Origin: Patescibacteria group bacterium
Lineage (GTDB): Bacteria; Patescibacteriota; Minisyncoccia; Ryanbacterales; GWA2-47-10b
DNA: 64,000 bases
Direction of reading: 5' to 3'
Assembly: GCA_038065475.1 (NCBI GenBank)
Contig: JBBTQY010000008.1
Span: forward strand, 6,562-70,561
Shown: positions 1,472 through 39,363 of the stretch, in pieces
Numbering within the stretch: position 1 is the stretch's first letter
Layout of the letters: every line of letters starts with the position of its first letter
Translations under genes and position numbers: made by a program
The notes under the pieces: generated by a model
Databases searched by the model: none
What the model was told of the DNA's origin: nothing
The model's input: the letters and a program-made list of their open reading frames with translations, nothing else

Positions 1472-2161
1472 TTATTTTAAAGGCTTTTTCCGCTCGTCAG
1501 ATACGATGGTGCCATCAACCAAGGTTATAATGCGGCCCGCAAACGCCGCATATTCGGGTTCATGGGTTACCATGATAATCGTCTGGTCACTCTTCTCATG
1601 AAGGTCACGAAATGCCTCCATGACGCGCAAACCATTGGCAGAATCAAGATTTGCAGTCGGTTCATCAGCAAAAAGAATTTGCGGCTCATGCGCAATGGCG
1701 CGTGCGATACTCACCCGCTGCTGCTGACCACCCGAGAGCTGGCTGGGTAAATTGTGTTTTTTATCAACCATACCAATGCGTTCGAGTGCGAGCGATGCCT
1801 TAAGATATGCCTCTGGAGTCGTGAGGCCCTGCATAATGATCGGCAGGGCAACATTCTCAAGCGCAGTAAGCTCAGGCAAAAGCGCATAGTCTTGAAATAC
1901 ATATCCAAGTTTCGCAAGACGAATATCGGTCTTTTCTTGCAGTGAGAGCTCACCTGTCCGCACTTCATCAAGAATCACCTCTCCTGAGGTCGGCTCATCG
2001 AGTAGTGAGAGCTGGTAGAGCAGCGTTGATTTGCCAGAACCTGACGGCCCAATGATCGCCACAAATTCCCCCGTTTTAATCTCAAAGTTAAGACCTTTGA
2101 GCACCACGAGTTCGAGCTCGCCCGAGCCATAACTTTTTACAAGTTTTTCTGTTCTGATCAT
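1472..2161 (-). CDS. ABC transporter ATP-binding protein (MacB/LolD-like)
   Basis: Walker A GPSGSGKST, signature LSGGQQQRVSIARA, Walker B ILFADEPT. Confidence 0.9.
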   Translation of the reverse strand: MIRTEKLVKSYGSGELELVVLKGLNFEIKTGEFVAIIGPSGSGKSTLLYQLSLLDEPTSGEVILDEVRTGELSLQEKTDIRLAKLGYVFQDYALLPELTALENVALPIIMQGLTTPEAYLKASLALERIGMVDKKHNLPSQLSGGQQQRVSIARAIAHEPQILFADEPTANLDSANGLRVMEAFRDLHEKSDQTIIMVTHEPEYAAFAGRIITLVDGTIVSDERKKPLK

Positions 2162-2163
2162 GA

Positions 2164-3432
2164 TTACCTTCCTAAAATAGAATCGAGCGTATTTTTGCGA
2201 ACAATAAGCTTTGCAGGAATATAACCAGCAATCAATGTAACGGTGAGCAAAATAGCAATACGAATGGCCGCACCTTCAGCAGTCGCTACCAAAATGCCGT
2301 CAGAGAAAGGAAAATCGATAGGGTGCACATCAAAGTACGGCTTGAGAATGCCGAAAGTTAATATGACACCGATCAACGATCCGATAACTCCGTAGAAAAG
2401 CGCTTGGAAAATATAAGAAAACTGTATCGCCTGTGGGCTGATGCCGATACCTTTCATAATGCCGATAAATTTTCGCTTGGTCACCGCGTTGATAAAAATC
2501 ACAATAAATACCGTGATTGATGCCACAATGAGCGCAACCGACGAGAGCGCATTGCCTAAAATACTAAAGGTCTGCTCGATATCGCGTAGAAATGATGGGA
2601 TGGCTTCATCAGTCGTCTGAATGCGCGCCGCGTGCCCCTCCATAAAATCTTTTGTCTCCGCTACTAAGGTTGGTGCATATTCATAATCAGTCCTGATGGC
2701 GATTGATTGTACCTGCTCTTTATTGACCGGCAAAAGCTTCTTGAGCTCTTTGTCAGTAATAAAAGCGCGCGTTGATATTTCATCAACTTTACTCTTTACA
2801 ATTCCTTTGATGATAAATTCTTTGCTAACAACGCCTCCCCCCGCGCGCGAAAAGCTAACGCGCACGCGACTGCCAATATCAACATCTTCTAGAAGCGTTA
2901 GACCGGGAATGTTTGCATCGGCAAATGAAGAATATTTTTTTATCATGTTCGCACCGATGAGTATATATCCCTCCTCTCCCTCGTTGAGATGTTCGCCGTA
3001 TTTGAGAAAGCGTGAAAAACCAGTCACCACCTCTTCCCGCGCAGGATCAATACCGGTCAGTGAAATACCAATGCGATTTGCGCGCTCGTTTTTGCCAGGC
3101 AAGTCGGTAAGCGTACCGAGTAATTGCACGCCCACAGAATATCGCGGCGAGATGGCTTCTACCTTTGGATGGCTCTCGAGAAAAGAAATGAGCGCTGGCG
3201 AATTTTCGATATAATCACGGCCATCAGCTGATGTGACAAGCACCTCTCCTGAGTATGCCTCGCGAAACTGTTTGAATGAGCCAGAAATAAGCCCGACCAA
3301 CAACCCCGAGACAACCACGAGGTTGAGAAATGTCAGAATCATGACAAAGATAATAAGCGTTGTAGTTCCCTTACCCGAGCGCCTGAGCTGCCGCAAAGCA
3401 AGAAAGAAACCGACGCGCAGCGAAAGAAGCAT
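2164..3432 (-). CDS. ABC transporter permease, FtsX/MacB family
   Basis: N-terminal TM, large periplasmic domain, C-terminal three-TM FtsX-like region; lies in an operon with the ATPase and the adaptor. Confidence 0.8.
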   Translation of the reverse strand: MLLSLRVGFFLALRQLRRSGKGTTTLIIFVMILTFLNLVVVSGLLVGLISGSFKQFREAYSGEVLVTSADGRDYIENSPALISFLESHPKVEAISPRYSVGVQLLGTLTDLPGKNERANRIGISLTGIDPAREEVVTGFSRFLKYGEHLNEGEEGYILIGANMIKKYSSFADANIPGLTLLEDVDIGSRVRVSFSRAGGGVVSKEFIIKGIVKSKVDEISTRAFITDKELKKLLPVNKEQVQSIAIRTDYEYAPTLVAETKDFMEGHAARIQTTDEAIPSFLRDIEQTFSILGNALSSVALIVASITVFIVIFINAVTKRKFIGIMKGIGISPQAIQFSYIFQALFYGVIGSLIGVILTFGILKPYFDVHPIDFPFSDGILVATAEGAAIRIAILLTVTLIAGYIPAKLIVRKNTLDSILGR

Positions 3433-3433
3433 A

Positions 3434-4975
3434 TTATTGCAAGATAATCATATCGCCCTCGGCAAGGCCGCCCGTGATCTCAGTAAAGCCGTCAGAACCT
3501 CGAAGACCAAGGAAAACTTCTACCTCGCGAGCATCTTCGATTTTTGATCCCACCATGACAAAGCGCTTGCCATCACGCGACTTAATAAACCGCTGTGGAA
3601 TTGCGAGAACCCCCGCGTTGCGCTTGCTCTCAATATCGATAGCCGCTGTCATACCCGATCTGATGCGATCATCTTTTTTAGCAAACTGCAATTCGATTTT
3701 ATAGGTAGAGACACTATCGATGACAGTTTCAGCCGGATCAATACGTACCACGCGTGCTTCAAACGGATTTTCGGTGCCATAAGCATCAAGAATAACGCGA
3801 GCTGACTGCCCGAGCGAAACCTTTGCAATATCGGCCTCGGGAATATTTGCCTCAATCTCAAAATCTGACGCACTGATAAGTGAGATAAGACTGGTACCAG
3901 CACTCACAAACTCGCCAGCATCAGCATCTTGTTTTGAGATGACGCCGGAGATAGGTGCAACAATGACAGTTTTTCCAAGTTGCGCGCGAATGTTATCGGC
4001 AGCTGCCTGGGCTCGTTCAACCTCAGCCTCGCCACTCAAAATTTCCTCAGCAGTACTTCCGGCTTTCTTTATTGAAAGCTCACGTTCGGAGACAACCAAT
4101 GCGGTCTCTGCGGCACGCAACTTCTCTTCTGCTGCAGATAGGTTAGAGATCGCAGTATTGACATTGGTACGAGCAGTTGCAATGTCTGTTTTATACCCAT
4201 CAATAGTAGTTTGCGTAATACCTGAATTAGGAGTCAGCGCATTTACTGCTTTTGCTGCATTGTCCAAGAAACGTTTGGTGGTATCCAAATTTTCCTTGAC
4301 CATCTGTATAAACGAATTGTCATCGATGTTTATGGTTTTTGCACGCCATTGCGTAAATAAAATCTCAAGCGCCACACGTCCGGATTTTATGTCAGCCTCG
4401 AGTTGCTGATCTCCGGTAGCAAAGGTAAGTTGGATCGATGATGTTCGCGGGTTGGTAAAAAGCTGATCAGCTTTGCCAGTTAATGCATCGTCCGCTTTTG
4501 TGTACGCTTCAGCAAGAACATTTTGCAGATTAACACGCGCATTTGCCACTGACGCTTTTGAGCTCGCTACTTTTGATTCATAAAGAGCAATATCTTCCGC
4601 ACGCGTGCCGCGCTTGAGCTCGGCGAGTTTTGCCTCCGCCGATTTTACGCTTGCCTCTGCCTCACGTAATTGTGCCGTAAGATCGCCCGCCGAAAGAGTT
4701 GCCAGACGCGTACCCGCAGATACAATATCACCTACTCTCACGTAGGAGGCGACGACACGCCCACCAACCTCAAACCCAAGGTCAACGGTGCTTGCTGGCT
4801 TTACCTGGCCGGAAATATTTACCTTTTGGACAACATCTCTGCGAACAACGTTAGCTGTCTCAGCATCGCCATTACCGCCCCCACCCAAGACAAAAGACCC
4901 GCCAATAGTTGCGAGTACGGCAACACCTACGATCCACTTGGTTCTGCGTGAAAGTTTTTTAAATCGTGCAATCAT
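3434..4975 (-). CDS. efflux periplasmic adaptor (HlyD/MacA family)
   Basis: N-terminal TM anchor, long coiled-coil, beta-barrel/lipoyl-like segments typical of membrane fusion proteins; lies upstream of the ABC pair. Confidence 0.8.
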   Translation of the reverse strand: MIARFKKLSRRTKWIVGVAVLATIGGSFVLGGGGNGDAETANVVRRDVVQKVNISGQVKPASTVDLGFEVGGRVVASYVRVGDIVSAGTRLATLSAGDLTAQLREAEASVKSAEAKLAELKRGTRAEDIALYESKVASSKASVANARVNLQNVLAEAYTKADDALTGKADQLFTNPRTSSIQLTFATGDQQLEADIKSGRVALEILFTQWRAKTINIDDNSFIQMVKENLDTTKRFLDNAAKAVNALTPNSGITQTTIDGYKTDIATARTNVNTAISNLSAAEEKLRAAETALVVSERELSIKKAGSTAEEILSGEAEVERAQAAADNIRAQLGKTVIVAPISGVISKQDADAGEFVSAGTSLISLISASDFEIEANIPEADIAKVSLGQSARVILDAYGTENPFEARVVRIDPAETVIDSVSTYKIELQFAKKDDRIRSGMTAAIDIESKRNAGVLAIPQRFIKSRDGKRFVMVGSKIEDAREVEVFLGLRGSDGFTEITGGLAEGDMIILQ

Positions 4976-4986
4976 TGTCCTTTATC

Positions 4987-5400
4987 CTAGCGTATTTTGT
5001 CTTTTTTCAAAAGCCCTGCCACACGAAAACTTATGTACGCCAAAAGCGCCAATTGGATAATAGGTGTGATACCTACATCGAGACATGGAAGAGTAGGCAT
5101 CCATGACGAGTAACTCCATCGTAAGGTTGCAAGCGCAAAAAGCTCGAGCCCGATAGCAAATGCAAAAAGTCCCCCGAGGGTGACATCAAGACGATTTTTA
5201 AATGGCTTAACCCATATATAGAGTACAGCTGCGACAAGAGTAACAAATGCATCAAAAAGAGCCGCCTTCATTAATAGAAGCTCAGTGATGGTACCGCCCT
5301 GATAGTGCACGTAGAGATACGAATGCACGTTTTCCCACAAAAGATTGAGAAAAAATGCGGCGATAAACACTATGATAAGTTGTTTGATGTGTGTATGCAT
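4987..5400 (-). CDS. hypothetical membrane protein
   Basis: Four predicted TM helices; no recognisable motif. Confidence 0.45.
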   Translation of the reverse strand: MHTHIKQLIIVFIAAFFLNLLWENVHSYLYVHYQGGTITELLLMKAALFDAFVTLVAAVLYIWVKPFKNRLDVTLGGLFAFAIGLELFALATLRWSYSSWMPTLPCLDVGITPIIQLALLAYISFRVAGLLKKDKIR

Positions 5401-5443
5401 TGACCATTCTTATACCATTTTTCACATAAAAGGTCAATGACTT

Positions 5444-5517
5444 TGGTGGACCTGCGGAGAATCGAACTCCGACCTCATCCATGCCATGGATGCATTCTAC
5501 CACTGAACTACAGGCCC
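5444..5517 (-). tRNA. tRNA-Ala(GGC), CCA encoded
   Basis: Cloverleaf GGGCCTGTAGTTCAGTGGTAGAATG...; anticodon loop ATGGCAT; G3:U70 Ala identity pair; 3' CCA present. Confidence 0.85.
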
Positions 5518-5575
5518 TTTTTTCTTGATAAAACTACTCTACACAAAAACAGTATATAAAAAAAGTCAGCCGCGC

Positions 5576-5941
5576 TTACGCGAGACCGGCTGACATGATG
5601 GAAGCATTCTCGAGCATGACTGCCACATGCTCGAGCTCGATGCACACGCGCTCATGTCCGAGCGACGTACAGATCAACTTGAAATGAAACCCCACGCCGA
5701 TATAGAACGTCACGCGCGGATCAGCATGCCCGAGAAAGAAATCCTCCGCAGCAAGACATGCGCGGATGTGCTGCGCTACACTGCCCTGCAGTACTGGCAA
5801 TCCATCGGCACGACCTTGACGTCGCTCGGACTCCTCCATGAACGCGACCGCGTCAGTAATCGCCCGGTAGGCGATCTCTCGGCGAGCATCCTCGACTTGG
5901 GCGGCACGTCGTTCATACTCTTCTCTGGTTAGGGAGCTCAT
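5576..5941 (-). CDS. hypothetical protein (GC-rich islet)
   Basis: Start taken at the internal ATG (MSSLTREEYERR) preceded by GAGGAGGGAAAG. The longer track ORF, which would run over tRNA-Arg, is rejected. Confidence 0.5.
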   Translation of the reverse strand: MSSLTREEYERRAAQVEDARREIAYRAITDAVAFMEESERRQGRADGLPVLQGSVAQHIRACLAAEDFFLGHADPRVTFYIGVGFHFKLICTSLGHERVCIELEHVAVMLENASIMSAGLA

Positions 5942-6006
5942 CTTTCCCTCCTCAAAACTATTCTGCGTGCATTCGTAGCACAAAAAATATCTTACCTCAA
6001 TACGTG

Positions 6007-6078
6007 TGTCCCCGGCAGGAATCGAACCTACATCCACTCCTTAGGACGGAGTTGTTCTGTCCATTGAACTACGGAGAC
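6007..6078 (-). tRNA. tRNA-Arg(CCT)
   Basis: GTCTCCGTAGTTCAATGGACAGAAC A ACTCC GTCCTAA GGAGT ... GGTTCGATTCC TGCCGGGGAC A; anticodon CCT. Confidence 0.8.
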
Positions 6079-6187
6079 ATTGAATCCCGACGCTTTAGTC
6101 GGGACCCCGACTTCATTATCATATATATGATGCGTCGGGGCTACGGAGACGCGTTATCGCTTCTTTATAGCACGCTCTTTTGATATA

Positions 6188-8192: not shown

Positions 8193-8885
8193 CTAAAACA
8201 CGCCGAGTACGCTACGCAAAAATGCACCAACACCATACGCAATGGCTGCGGCAAATCCTCCAATAACAAGTATCTCGAGACCCGAGAATATAAATGATCG
8301 CTTGGTGATGAGTGATCGCAAAGCTCCTAATATAAAAAGTACCGCACCGGTCGATACAATTGAGTAAAGAAAGATGTTGGAAACATTTGAAACAAAAAAG
8401 AAAGGAAGTACGGGTAACAACCCCGCACCTACAAATGCCACGAATGTCAGCACCGAACCTAAAACGACAGGCCCACGCTCATGTCCTGACATATCGAACT
8501 CCTCGTGCATCAAAAGATCTGCAAAAAATGCTTTATTCTTAAACATAAGGCGTGCCAAAGACTCTGAATCGGCCTCTGAATATCCCTCTTCGCGCAAAAG
8601 CTGGGTCATCTCTCCCCGCTCGGCATCTGGGTCCTGGGCGATCTCAAGCTCTTCATCACGATATCCTTTTGCTATCACGTCGCGCTCAGATTTTGAGCCG
8701 AGATAATTTGATACAGCCATAGAAAAACCGTCGGCGAGCACATTGGCAACGCCGAGCAATATAATAGTCATACGCGGATCAGCGAGCTCAGCGCCCGCTA
8801 CCCCTGCAATAATAGCAAAGGTAGTGATAACGCCATCGTTAGCGCCATAAACAACGTCTTTGATATAGCGCCCGCTCGCTTTCAT
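8193..8885 (-). CDS. VIT1/CCC1-family iron/manganese transporter
   Basis: N-terminal VYGANDGVITTFAIIAG motif and a C-terminal TM bundle typical of the VIT family. Confidence 0.75.
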   Translation of the reverse strand: MKASGRYIKDVVYGANDGVITTFAIIAGVAGAELADPRMTIILLGVANVLADGFSMAVSNYLGSKSERDVIAKGYRDEELEIAQDPDAERGEMTQLLREEGYSEADSESLARLMFKNKAFFADLLMHEEFDMSGHERGPVVLGSVLTFVAFVGAGLLPVLPFFFVSNVSNIFLYSIVSTGAVLFILGALRSLITKRSFIFSGLEILVIGGFAAAIAYGVGAFLRSVLGVF

Positions 8886-38568: not shown

Positions 38569-38597
38569 TATGCTTTGAGTATATCGAATGTAAGTAT

Positions 38598-38626
38598 AAA
38601 AACAAAAAACGACCCCGTCAGGGTCG
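38598..38626 (-). terminator. rho-independent terminator immediately 3' of the hammerhead motif
   Basis: Minus strand CGACCCUGACGGGGUCG followed by UUUUUUGUUUUU. Confidence 0.6.
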
Positions 38627-38630
38627 CTTG

Positions 38631-38689
38631 CCGATTTCGTCCTCCGTAAACTCCGGACTCATCAGACGAAGCATGCACTTCGTGATCGG
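38631..38689 (-). ncRNA. type III hammerhead ribozyme motif
   Basis: Minus strand CCGAUC^ACGAAG UGCAUG CUUCGU CUGAUGA GUCC GGAGUUUACGGA GGAC GAA AUCGG. It has helix III (CCGAU/AUCGG), cleavage triplet AUC, helix I hairpin (6 bp), core CUGAUGA, helix II (GUCC/GGAC), GAA and the A15.1-U16.1 pair. Confidence 0.7.
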
Positions 38690-38749
38690 TGGGGGTTTTG
38701 GTTCGAGAAAACCCCGTAAACTCGGCTTTGGAACGCACGATTGATTGCG

Positions 38750-38905
38750 TCAGTGCCTGCGAGTCAATCCTTTCCGGATCAAGGTCGCGAGAGCAAGGCC
38801 CAGAAAGGCAGCTCCCATGACGATGCCGATGGGCCTGTCTCTGAAGAGCAGGCTGATGAGAGCTCCTCCAGCGAGAAAGAACAAGAAATCAATCCTATCC
38901 TTCAT
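38750..38905 (-). CDS. small membrane protein, 51 aa (GC-rich)
   Basis: AGGAG 9 nt before ATG; MKDRIDFLFFLAGGALISLLFRDRPIGIVMGAAFLGLALATLIRKGLTRRH. Confidence 0.4.
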   Translation of the reverse strand: MKDRIDFLFFLAGGALISLLFRDRPIGIVMGAAFLGLALATLIRKGLTRRH

Positions 38906-38949
38906 GACTCATGGCTCCTTATGACAGATTTATGTCGCTAAAGCAGCGA

Positions 38950-39195
38950 CTAGTGCAGAGTGCGCTGCGAGCAGTCGCCGCTGCGTTGCGGCGGAAGATA
39001 GGATCGCGGGCGCTCCTGCGCGAGACGTGCGGCACGCTCCCGCTTGTACTGCTGCCACTGTCTCTCCTTCCGTCGCTCCTCGAGTGCCTCTCCGATCCAC
39101 ATGAGAAAGCAACAACCCATGATGAAGCTGCCGCCGAAGATCGAGGGACCCATGATCATCAACAGGAAATAGGTGATGTTAACGGGCTGTTCCAT
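38950..39195 (-). CDS. small membrane-anchored Arg-rich protein, 81 aa (GC-rich)
   Basis: GAGAGGAG 7 nt before ATG; TM (YFLLMIMGPSIFGGSFIMGCCFLMWIG) then EERRKERQWQQYKRERAARLAQER. Start taken at the internal ATG; the antisense track ORF is rejected. Confidence 0.5.
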   Translation of the reverse strand: MEQPVNITYFLLMIMGPSIFGGSFIMGCCFLMWIGEALEERRKERQWQQYKRERAARLAQERPRSYLPPQRSGDCSQRTLH

Positions 39196-39363
39196 GAGAA
39201 ATCTCCTCTCGTTTGTCTTTGCGCTTAAGAAGAGCCTTGCGGCTTTTCTTTGAAAAGAATAACTCAACTCTGCAAGTAATTATAGCACTATTTATATGTT
39301 CTGTCAATATCATAAAACTGTTGAAATATAAGGGTTTTTGGATAAATATGCTATCATCCCCCT

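Follow-up and report, generated by a model that had tools for sequence, protein, structure and literature searches.

We report a type III hammerhead ribozyme motif of 59 nt in the genome of a Patescibacteria group bacterium, at positions 38631–38689 (minus strand) of a 64,000-nt stretch of contig JBBTQY010000008.1; this whole stretch is called the window below. The motif follows two small open reading frames, ORF1 and ORF2. We interpret it as a genuine type III hammerhead located in the 3′ untranslated part of a small transcription unit specific to this lineage, where the ribozyme would set the 3′ end of the message, and we give this interpretation a probability of about 0.72. The host is an uncultured Ryanbacteria-like groundwater bacterium of the candidate phyla radiation (CPR), whose nearest named RuvA relatives belong to Candidatus Ryanbacteria (66% identity). 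The parts of the motif are as follows.

38631–38689, minus strand: type III hammerhead ribozyme motif, 59 nt (sequence, descriptor scan, and covariance models R1 and R2, described below)
38685–38689, minus strand: helix III 5′ strand CCGAU, with U16.1 at 38685; pairs with AUCGG at 38635–38631 over 5 bp
38683–38684, minus strand: predicted scissile bond between C17 (38684) and A1.1 (38683), position derived from the hammerhead consensus
38666–38683, minus strand: helix I hairpin ACGAAGU-GCAU-GCUUCGU, 18 nt, with 6 Watson-Crick pairs plus a U·G pair
38659–38665, minus strand: catalytic core C3–A9, CUGAUGA
38639–38658, minus strand: helix II GUCC/GGAC, 4 bp, first pair G10.1:C11.1, with the 12-nt loop II GGAGUUUACGGA at 38654–38643
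38631–38638, minus strand: G12, A13 and A14 (38638–38636) and the helix III 3′ strand AUCGG, with A15.1 at 38635

Read 5′ to 3′ on the minus strand, positions 38689–38631 are CCGAUC ACGAAG UGCAUG CUUCGU CUGAUGA GUCC GGAGUUUACGGA GGAC GAA AUCGG, letter for letter the string quoted in an earlier interpretation made from the DNA letters (the sequence-only reading). Parsed by hammerhead numbering, the string becomes CCGAUC-ACGAAGUGCAUGCUUCGU-CUGAUGA-GUCCGGAGUUUACGGAGGAC-GAA-AUCGG and has the topology of type III, III(5′)–C17–I hairpin–core–II hairpin–GAA–III(3′), with helices I and II capped by loops and helix III open. The sequence-only reading had claimed every invariant hammerhead element in the right order and spacing, and our parsing bears this out: CUGAUGA, GAA, the pair A15.1 (38635):U16.1 (38685) and a non-G at position 17 (C17) are all in place, with AUC as the cleavage triplet. 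The helix lengths it gave (6 bp for helix I, 4 bp for helix II with G10.1:C11.1 and 5 bp for helix III) agree with the parse, as does its predicted cut between 38684 and 38683, which fall on C17 and A1.1. All 13 invariant core positions (13/13) and all three helices are intact, and the helix I hairpin has the 18-nt length and the GUG..UGC loop flanks of the viral consensus. These features support the identification of the motif as a putative genuine type III hammerhead.

We searched the window with a descriptor for the type III class (CUGANGA, GAAA, U16.1, any base but G at position 17, and minimum helix lengths of 4, 3 and 3 bp). This site was the only match in 64 kb on both strands. When the window was shuffled 300 times (first-order Markov), one loose match arose and none with helices as long as those of the window motif, or about 0.003 loose matches expected per shuffled window; on this test, chance is excluded. 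The hammerhead fold lies 1.8 kcal/mol above the minimum free energy, and the corresponding values for 61 viral examples have a median of 0.5 and a maximum of 5.4.

The motif was further evaluated with two covariance models built from viral hammerheads. Scanning viral contigs with CUGAUGAGUCC...GGACGAAA yielded more than 120 loci; a classifier assigned 97 of the matches to type I and 25 to type III. The first model, R1, was seeded with 23 viral type III hammerheads (alignment A2) that by construction have about 19 nt in common with the window. It scored the window site at 49.2 bits (E 1.5e-13, like that of R2 a rough value from a shortened calibration) and the runner-up site at 10.7 bits, a result that is partly circular in that the seeds were selected by the window’s own helix II sequence. 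Because of this circularity we built a second model, R2, using a seed pattern that is unable to match the window’s GUCC helix (CUGAUGAGSSS...SSSCGAAAC). The pattern recovered 45 further viral type III hammerheads, 38 of which were used (alignment A4), with only the universal core in common with the window. R2 scored the window site at 38.4 bits (E 4.6e-10) and the runner-up at 10.0 bits, a 28-bit gap to the next site that is independent of the E-values. The helices of the viral class covary strongly, but this signal is circular, the seeds having come from a descriptor that requires paired helices.

The motif is embedded in a transcription unit on the minus strand, composed as follows.

39279–39307, minus strand: sigma-70-type promoter, TTGACA-17-TATAAT with a TG extension, 12 of 12 consensus matches
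38950–39195, minus strand: ORF1, 81 aa, ATG at 39195, AGGAG ribosome-binding site 7 nt upstream; a hydrophobic segment, then a basic tail
38750–38905, minus strand: ORF2, 51 aa, ATG at 38905, AAGGAG ribosome-binding site 9 nt upstream; two hydrophobic segments
38692–38715, minus strand: 8-bp hairpin GGGGUUUU-CUCGAACC-AAAACCCC, ending 2 nt before the ribozyme (predicted fold)
38598–38629, minus strand: intrinsic terminator with a 10-bp stem (38629–38607), a GAC loop and then the U tract UUUUUUGUUUUU

The order of the unit is promoter (39307–39279), ORF1, ORF2, 8-bp hairpin, ribozyme and intrinsic terminator. Transcription of the motif strand is supported by the perfect promoter, the two ORFs with strong ribosome-binding sites and the 10-bp terminator. 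The promoter would start the transcript near 39272; promoter-like sites in the region number four, versus 0.8 expected from shuffles. The sequence-only reading had put the stop of a 51-aa ORF about 60 nt before the motif and a strong intrinsic terminator next to it, and both are there: ORF2 (38905–38750) stops 60 nt before the motif, and the terminator combines its 10-bp stem (38629–38607) with a U tract. Its phrase “two small membrane-protein genes” survives in part, since the motif does follow two small ORFs, but both are orphans and ORF2 is absent from public gene calls. Neither ORF matched a family in Pfam or PHROG, and ORF2 found no relative in a word-indexed search of 5.8 billion clustered proteins or in an exhaustive HMMER search of 1.84 billion representatives. 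The public calls, besides omitting ORF2, list a 105-aa ORF on 38911–39228 (plus strand) opposite ORF1. If either of the two is a real gene, the 81-aa minus-strand ORF1 looks like the one, because of its consensus promoter, strong ribosome-binding site and hydrophobic segment. Between the ORF1 stop and the ORF2 ribosome-binding site lies a 6-bp hairpin, GUCGCU-GCUU-UAGCGAC (38925–38941, minus strand). Downstream, ruvA starts 62 nt after the motif and is preceded by a promoter-like element of its own that is also conserved among relatives.

The hairpin just upstream of the ribozyme links the window motif to a pattern among viral hammerheads. Of 25 viral type III hammerheads, about 20 carry a stable hairpin reaching up to the ribozyme’s 5′ edge; the 36 nt upstream have a mean free energy of −14.2 kcal/mol in this first set versus −4.7 kcal/mol for random 36-mers. 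An independent second viral set gave a hairpin in 30 of 45 cases and a mean of −10.4 kcal/mol versus −6.2 kcal/mol in controls (Mann-Whitney p = 1e-7). The window hairpin (38715–38692), with −10.5 kcal/mol, in the 7th percentile of window 36-mers, and 2 nt before the motif, fits this hairpin-hammerhead pattern. The pairing has a rationale: the cleavage site of a type III hammerhead lies close to its 5′ terminus, so that the upstream RNA then ends just past the hairpin. This is in keeping with a role in transcript processing at gene boundaries, as has been proposed in print for the hammerheads of bacteria and phages (PMC3088659). Hammerheads occur in all domains of life, but the functions of bacterial self-cleaving ribozymes are largely unresolved (PMC6765202). 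One part of the phage-type module is missing at the window: in viral contigs the next gene’s ATG lies 20–30 nt downstream of the type III hammerhead, whereas here, instead of a close downstream ORF in a phage context, a terminator follows and then ruvA at 62 nt.

Within the viral contigs, many type III hammerheads are preceded not merely by any hairpin but by nearly one same hairpin sequence, GGUGUCUUCAAAGACACC. Hairpins of this type lie just 5′ of the hammerheads in L072 (3300–3316), L077, L088 (575–592), L103, L107, L127 and L161, and their near-identity points to a conserved module of two parts or to a site bound by a protein. Among other viral contigs, L093 carries a type III hammerhead at 5996–6045 and a Pistol ribozyme at 8758–8824 (plus strand, 40.4 bits), L063 has a DUF805b RNA at 3733–3765 (plus strand) about 530 nt downstream of its hammerhead, and L120 contains, at 1892–6178 (plus strand), five matches to the core-plus-helix-II pattern within 4.3 kb, spaced by about 480–2000 nt.

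From the sequence we infer cleavage and an effect on RNA stability along the following lines. Once RNA polymerase has passed 38631, helices I, II and III would form around the CUGAUGA/GAA core, and the 2′-OH of C17 would attack the next phosphate, breaking the chain between 38684 and 38683. The two-ORF message would be left with a 2′,3′-cyclic phosphate end 7 nt past the 8-bp hairpin, and a fragment of about 85 nt, consisting of the ribozyme body and the terminator, would be released with a 5′-OH. Most likely, then, the ribozyme cuts off the 3′ end of the message. The ribozyme would define the new end and the upstream hairpin would cap it, in place of the terminator hairpin. RNA that reads through the terminator would be severed from the message as well. 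Such cleavage would change the stability of the message and insulate it from ruvA.

We then compared the locus with its relatives. The region is identical in independent assemblies (Hainich aquifer; ENA ERZ1292624), and its neighbours are housekeeping genes, including uvrB, ruvA, a Mur ligase, a SIMPL protein, polA, a histidine kinase and an aminoacyl-tRNA synthetase, among others. No phage or integrase genes were found within about 10 kb, and a prophage context was rejected on the basis of the housekeeping neighbours. BLAST of the 3′ untranslated region (UTR) against cultured phages returned only noise. A viroid-like, satellite or retrozyme circular RNA was also rejected, given the single hammerhead in 64 kb (both strands) and its location in chromosomal DNA identical across assemblies. 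Searching with the RuvA protein gave relatives at 95–66% identity, and a RuvA scan of GTDB species representatives found nothing closer than 48% identity. In four contigs whose RuvA is 95%, 88%, 76% and 73% identical, the order uvrB–ruvA–mur is kept, and DNA similarity to these contigs ends just upstream of the ruvA promoter. The ruvA promoter region itself (GATATACTCAAA) is conserved throughout the window and the compared spacers (contigs L171, L173, L174 and L175). The uvrB–ruvA spacer measures 795 bp here (38569–39363). In three relatives it is about 500 bp long and contains unrelated small genes, and in the fourth it is 14 bp; across the relatives it encodes a 121-aa protein that looks secreted, a membrane protein of 69 aa, a protein of 120 aa, or no protein. 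Where a relative’s spacer holds a gene, a terminator follows it in the corresponding position and precedes the conserved ruvA promoter. Because the relatives’ spacers differ and lack the hammerhead, we regard the uvrB–ruvA spacer as a hypervariable small-gene slot and the ribozyme as lineage-specific. The guanine-plus-cytosine (GC) content of the cassette is 52% (60% in ORF1) versus 46.6% for the window, in the top 6% of equal-size windows, an excess that weakly hints at foreign origin.

Loop II sets the window motif apart from the viral class, with 12 nt versus 4–6 nt in 61 viral relatives, and part of its sequence recurs upstream.

38714–38723, minus strand: upstream copy of the 10-mer GAGUUUACGG, which also forms most of loop II (sequence comparison)

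The sequence-only reading had noted a partial copy of loop II about 50 nt upstream. Such a copy exists (CCGAGUUUACGGGG, 38725–38712), but the distance needs correcting to 23–36 nt before the 5′ end of the motif and 70 nt before loop II. A direct repeat of at least 10 nt arises in 2.5% of shuffles of the 152-nt 3′ UTR; the GAGUUUACGG repeat is marginally unusual, and the upstream copy may be a coincidence. A search for a pseudoknot or trans partner of loop II turned up only G-U-rich matches. Scanning metagenomes for hammerheads with a GAGUUUAC loop gave one match, on contig L179, and the 8-mer GAGUUUAC common to it and the window was imposed by the search pattern, leaving the offset, loop length and topology as the independent agreements. 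In the viral contigs, three different patterns recovered no GAGUUUAC-type loop; where a viral hammerhead does have a long loop II, it belongs to type I, its helices are extended and its sequence is unrelated.

The metagenome scan requiring GAGUUUAC in loop II led to further CPR hammerheads: L180 and L181 were reached through homologues of the glycosyltransferase encoded on L179. All three are Microgenomates-like CPR chromosomal contigs that carry a type III hammerhead upstream of an orthologous GT2 glycosyltransferase gene.

L179, 1227–1286, minus strand: GT2-linked hammerhead
L180, 2448–2498, plus strand: GT2-linked hammerhead
L181, 2357–2419, plus strand: GT2-linked hammerhead

The L179 hammerhead is of type III; its helix I hairpin is 18 nt long, its helix III has 5 bp, and its loop II, UGAGUUUACCGAA, is 13 nt. 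Five of the six helix I pairs and four of the five helix III pairs differ from those of the window on both sides and still pair, although L179 was found by pattern and is not an independent orthologue. As a tertiary contact between loops, L179 could form a 4-bp AGAC/GUUU pairing, of which the window motif could form only three pairs. L180 carries an orthologous hammerhead with a plain AAAA loop II, and L181 has a long, irregular helix II and an intrinsic terminator directly after the ribozyme, as in the window. Loop II size is thus labile in this scaffold. The ribozymes of L179 and L180 end 2–3 nt before the GT2 start codon, and AAGGA in the helix II 3′ strand may double as the ribosome-binding site in both.

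Hammerhead-like motifs also occupy the same GT2-upstream position in L184 (2567–2622, plus strand) and in L182 and L183 (about 2372–2439, plus strand). The A15.1-U16.1 pair is normally invariant and usually thought essential. In L182, L183 and L184 it is swapped to U15.1-A16.1, with cleavage triplets GAA and GAC; the swap is a compensatory change at position 15.1-16.1, and L184 still folds as a three-way junction.

Several observations weigh against our interpretation. The Rfam check proposed in the sequence-only reading gave no family at threshold, which by that reading’s own criterion counts against the motif: at gathering thresholds the whole window matched nine tRNAs and nothing else, and a search of 351 nt at E ≤ 10 returned no match. 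Run on 81 nt, RF00008 (Hammerhead_3) scored 14.2 bits versus its gathering score of 48.5, and its alignment covered helix I, the core, helix II and GAA, leaving helix III unaligned. The Rfam test is not decisive, because the same threshold also rejects canonical phage and CPR type III hammerheads. Eleven viral loci with textbook type III hammerheads had no Rfam hammerhead match at gathering thresholds; the viral L088 hammerhead, searched alone against RF00008, reached 47.6 bits, just below threshold, and the CPR example L180 reached 39.1 bits. The window’s 14.2 bits nevertheless lie far below the 39–48 bits of these canonical viral and CPR examples, a poorer fit that we attribute to its longer loops and to a penalised A16.2-U15.2 pair. 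The hammerhead also lacks syntenic conservation, as it was not found in the spacers of the relatives whose RuvA is 95%, 88%, 76% and 73% identical, and the only identical copies come from the same population, so that covariation at the locus is not assessable. The active fold has competitors: CUGAU can pair with AUCGG, and UUCGUC (helix I 3′ strand, 38666–38671) is perfectly complementary to GACGAA (38636–38641), a segment that spans the 3′ end of helix II and G12–A14 and is mimicked by the helix I 5′ strand ACGAAG. This 6-bp pairing occurs in the minimum-free-energy fold of a 171-nt context and is absent from L179; it could be an off-switch, or a coincidence. Loop II is 12 nt long, versus 4–6 nt in relatives, and we found no convincing contact between it and loop I, which leaves activity at physiological Mg2+ uncertain. 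Finally, the strong terminator just 2 nt downstream makes a ribozyme that forms 3′ ends look redundant, and ORF1 and ORF2, as orphans, may not be genes.

Some of these points feed alternative explanations. The motif could be a hitch-hiking or decaying element of a phage-like, horizontally acquired cassette, which may still cut but has no host role, the 3′ end being made by the terminator. In line with this, the motif is missing from all close relatives, whose spacers hold other small genes or none; the cassette has a raised GC content (52%, and 60% in ORF1, versus 46.6%, in the top 6% of windows); both ORFs are orphans; the nearest look-alikes of the motif are in viral contigs; and the terminator follows immediately. 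We nonetheless consider a hitch-hiker unlikely, since an unselected motif would decay fast and here the 13 core positions, the three helices and the upstream hairpin are all intact, and since the surrounding 10 kb or so hold polA, uvrB, ruvA, a Mur ligase, an aminoacyl-tRNA synthetase and other housekeeping genes but neither an integrase nor a phage gene. Chance resemblance with no ribozyme fold behind it would account for the missing Rfam match at its thresholds and for the lack of conservation at this locus, but we give it next to no credence: about 0.003 loose matches are expected per window, the independent model R2 recognises the site with E 4.6e-10, and the motif sits on the correct strand of a defined transcript with the upstream hairpin typical of its class.

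The ribozyme might instead act on what lies downstream, severing RNA that escapes the terminator and so uncoupling the ruvA–mur mRNA from the strongly promoted small-ORF transcript. The GT2-linked ribozymes of L179 and L180 and the viral contigs offer precedents, the former ending 2–3 nt before a start codon and the latter having the next ATG within 20–30 nt, and read-through from a perfect-consensus promoter could be significant. We hold such a role to be improbable here, given the 10-bp, U-tract terminator between ribozyme and ruvA and the separate promoter-like element of ruvA, which is conserved even in relatives that lack the ribozyme. Cleavage could also be conditional, gated by a protein, RNA or ligand that binds either loop II in its enlarged form (GAGUUUAC) or the loop copy upstream. 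The 12-nt loop versus 4–6 nt in the 61 viral relatives, the presence of GAGUUUAC at the same offset in the 13-nt loop of L179 when its orthologue in L180 has a plain AAAA, and the 10-nt loop copy 70 nt upstream would fit a gate of this kind. It seems a very doubtful prospect all the same: the 8-mer common with L179 was demanded by the search pattern, only two examples exist, the viral contigs having supplied none, the upstream repeat is unlikely to no more than a marginal degree (P ~0.025), and no complementary partner was found in the transcript. In a wider form of this idea, the GAGUUUAC loop II of two unrelated CPR hammerheads, partly duplicated 70 nt upstream in the window, might dock a protein, RNA or ligand; the window motif would then be a naturally regulated hammerhead that switches the 3′ end of a small membrane-protein message between ribozyme-made and terminator-made forms, with CPR bacteria using chromosomal hammerheads routinely at gene boundaries; we rate this combined idea as a long shot. 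A ribozyme that sets the 3′ end of the two-ORF message remains our preferred interpretation.

Bacterial and phage DNA has been known to contain type III hammerheads since 2010–2011, and the class, core, helix lengths and upstream hairpin of the window motif are already known. Distinct here are the CPR host group, the housekeeping chromosomal context, the enlarged loop II and the terminator immediately downstream; our literature search found no paper linking hammerheads with CPR or Patescibacteria. The Rfam threshold misses the window site as well as canonical phage type III hammerheads, and annotation pipelines probably under-report the class. With one promoter, two tiny ORFs, a hairpin, a ribozyme and a terminator, the simple anatomy of the unit provides a clean case for the role of a bacterial 3′-UTR hammerhead.

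Compared with known systems, the window motif shares a general idea with the glmS ribozyme and with twister ribozymes in 3′ UTRs (reviewed in PMC6765202), namely that self-cleavage alters message ends and thereby stability or expression. The glmS ribozyme differs in having another fold, in depending on a metabolite and in lying in a 5′ UTR. Against the Rfam family RF00008 (Hammerhead_3), the core, helix I and helix II of the window motif align and helix III does not. The closest published counterparts are the phage, prophage and bacterial type III hammerheads of Perreault et al. 2011 (PMC3088659), which have the same catalytic core, an open helix III of 4–6 bp, the same 18-nt helix I hairpin with GUG..UGC, the 4-bp GUCC/GGAC helix II, and the same stable 5′ hairpin and gene-boundary location. 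In contrast to these, the window has a 12-nt rather than a 4–6-nt loop II, the cleavage triplet AUC where theirs is usually GUC, an intrinsic terminator after the motif where theirs is followed by the next ORF, and a locus in a CPR housekeeping chromosome region without nearby phage genes. The GT2-linked hammerheads of L179, L180 and L181 differ from the window motif in lying upstream of a conserved GT2 gene, in being preceded by a purine-rich run instead of a hairpin, and in their unrelated helix sequences. They share with it the CPR-type chromosomal setting, the 18-nt helix I hairpin and the 5-bp helix III; in addition, L179 has an enlarged GAGUUUAC loop II and L181 a terminator after the ribozyme, both as in the window.

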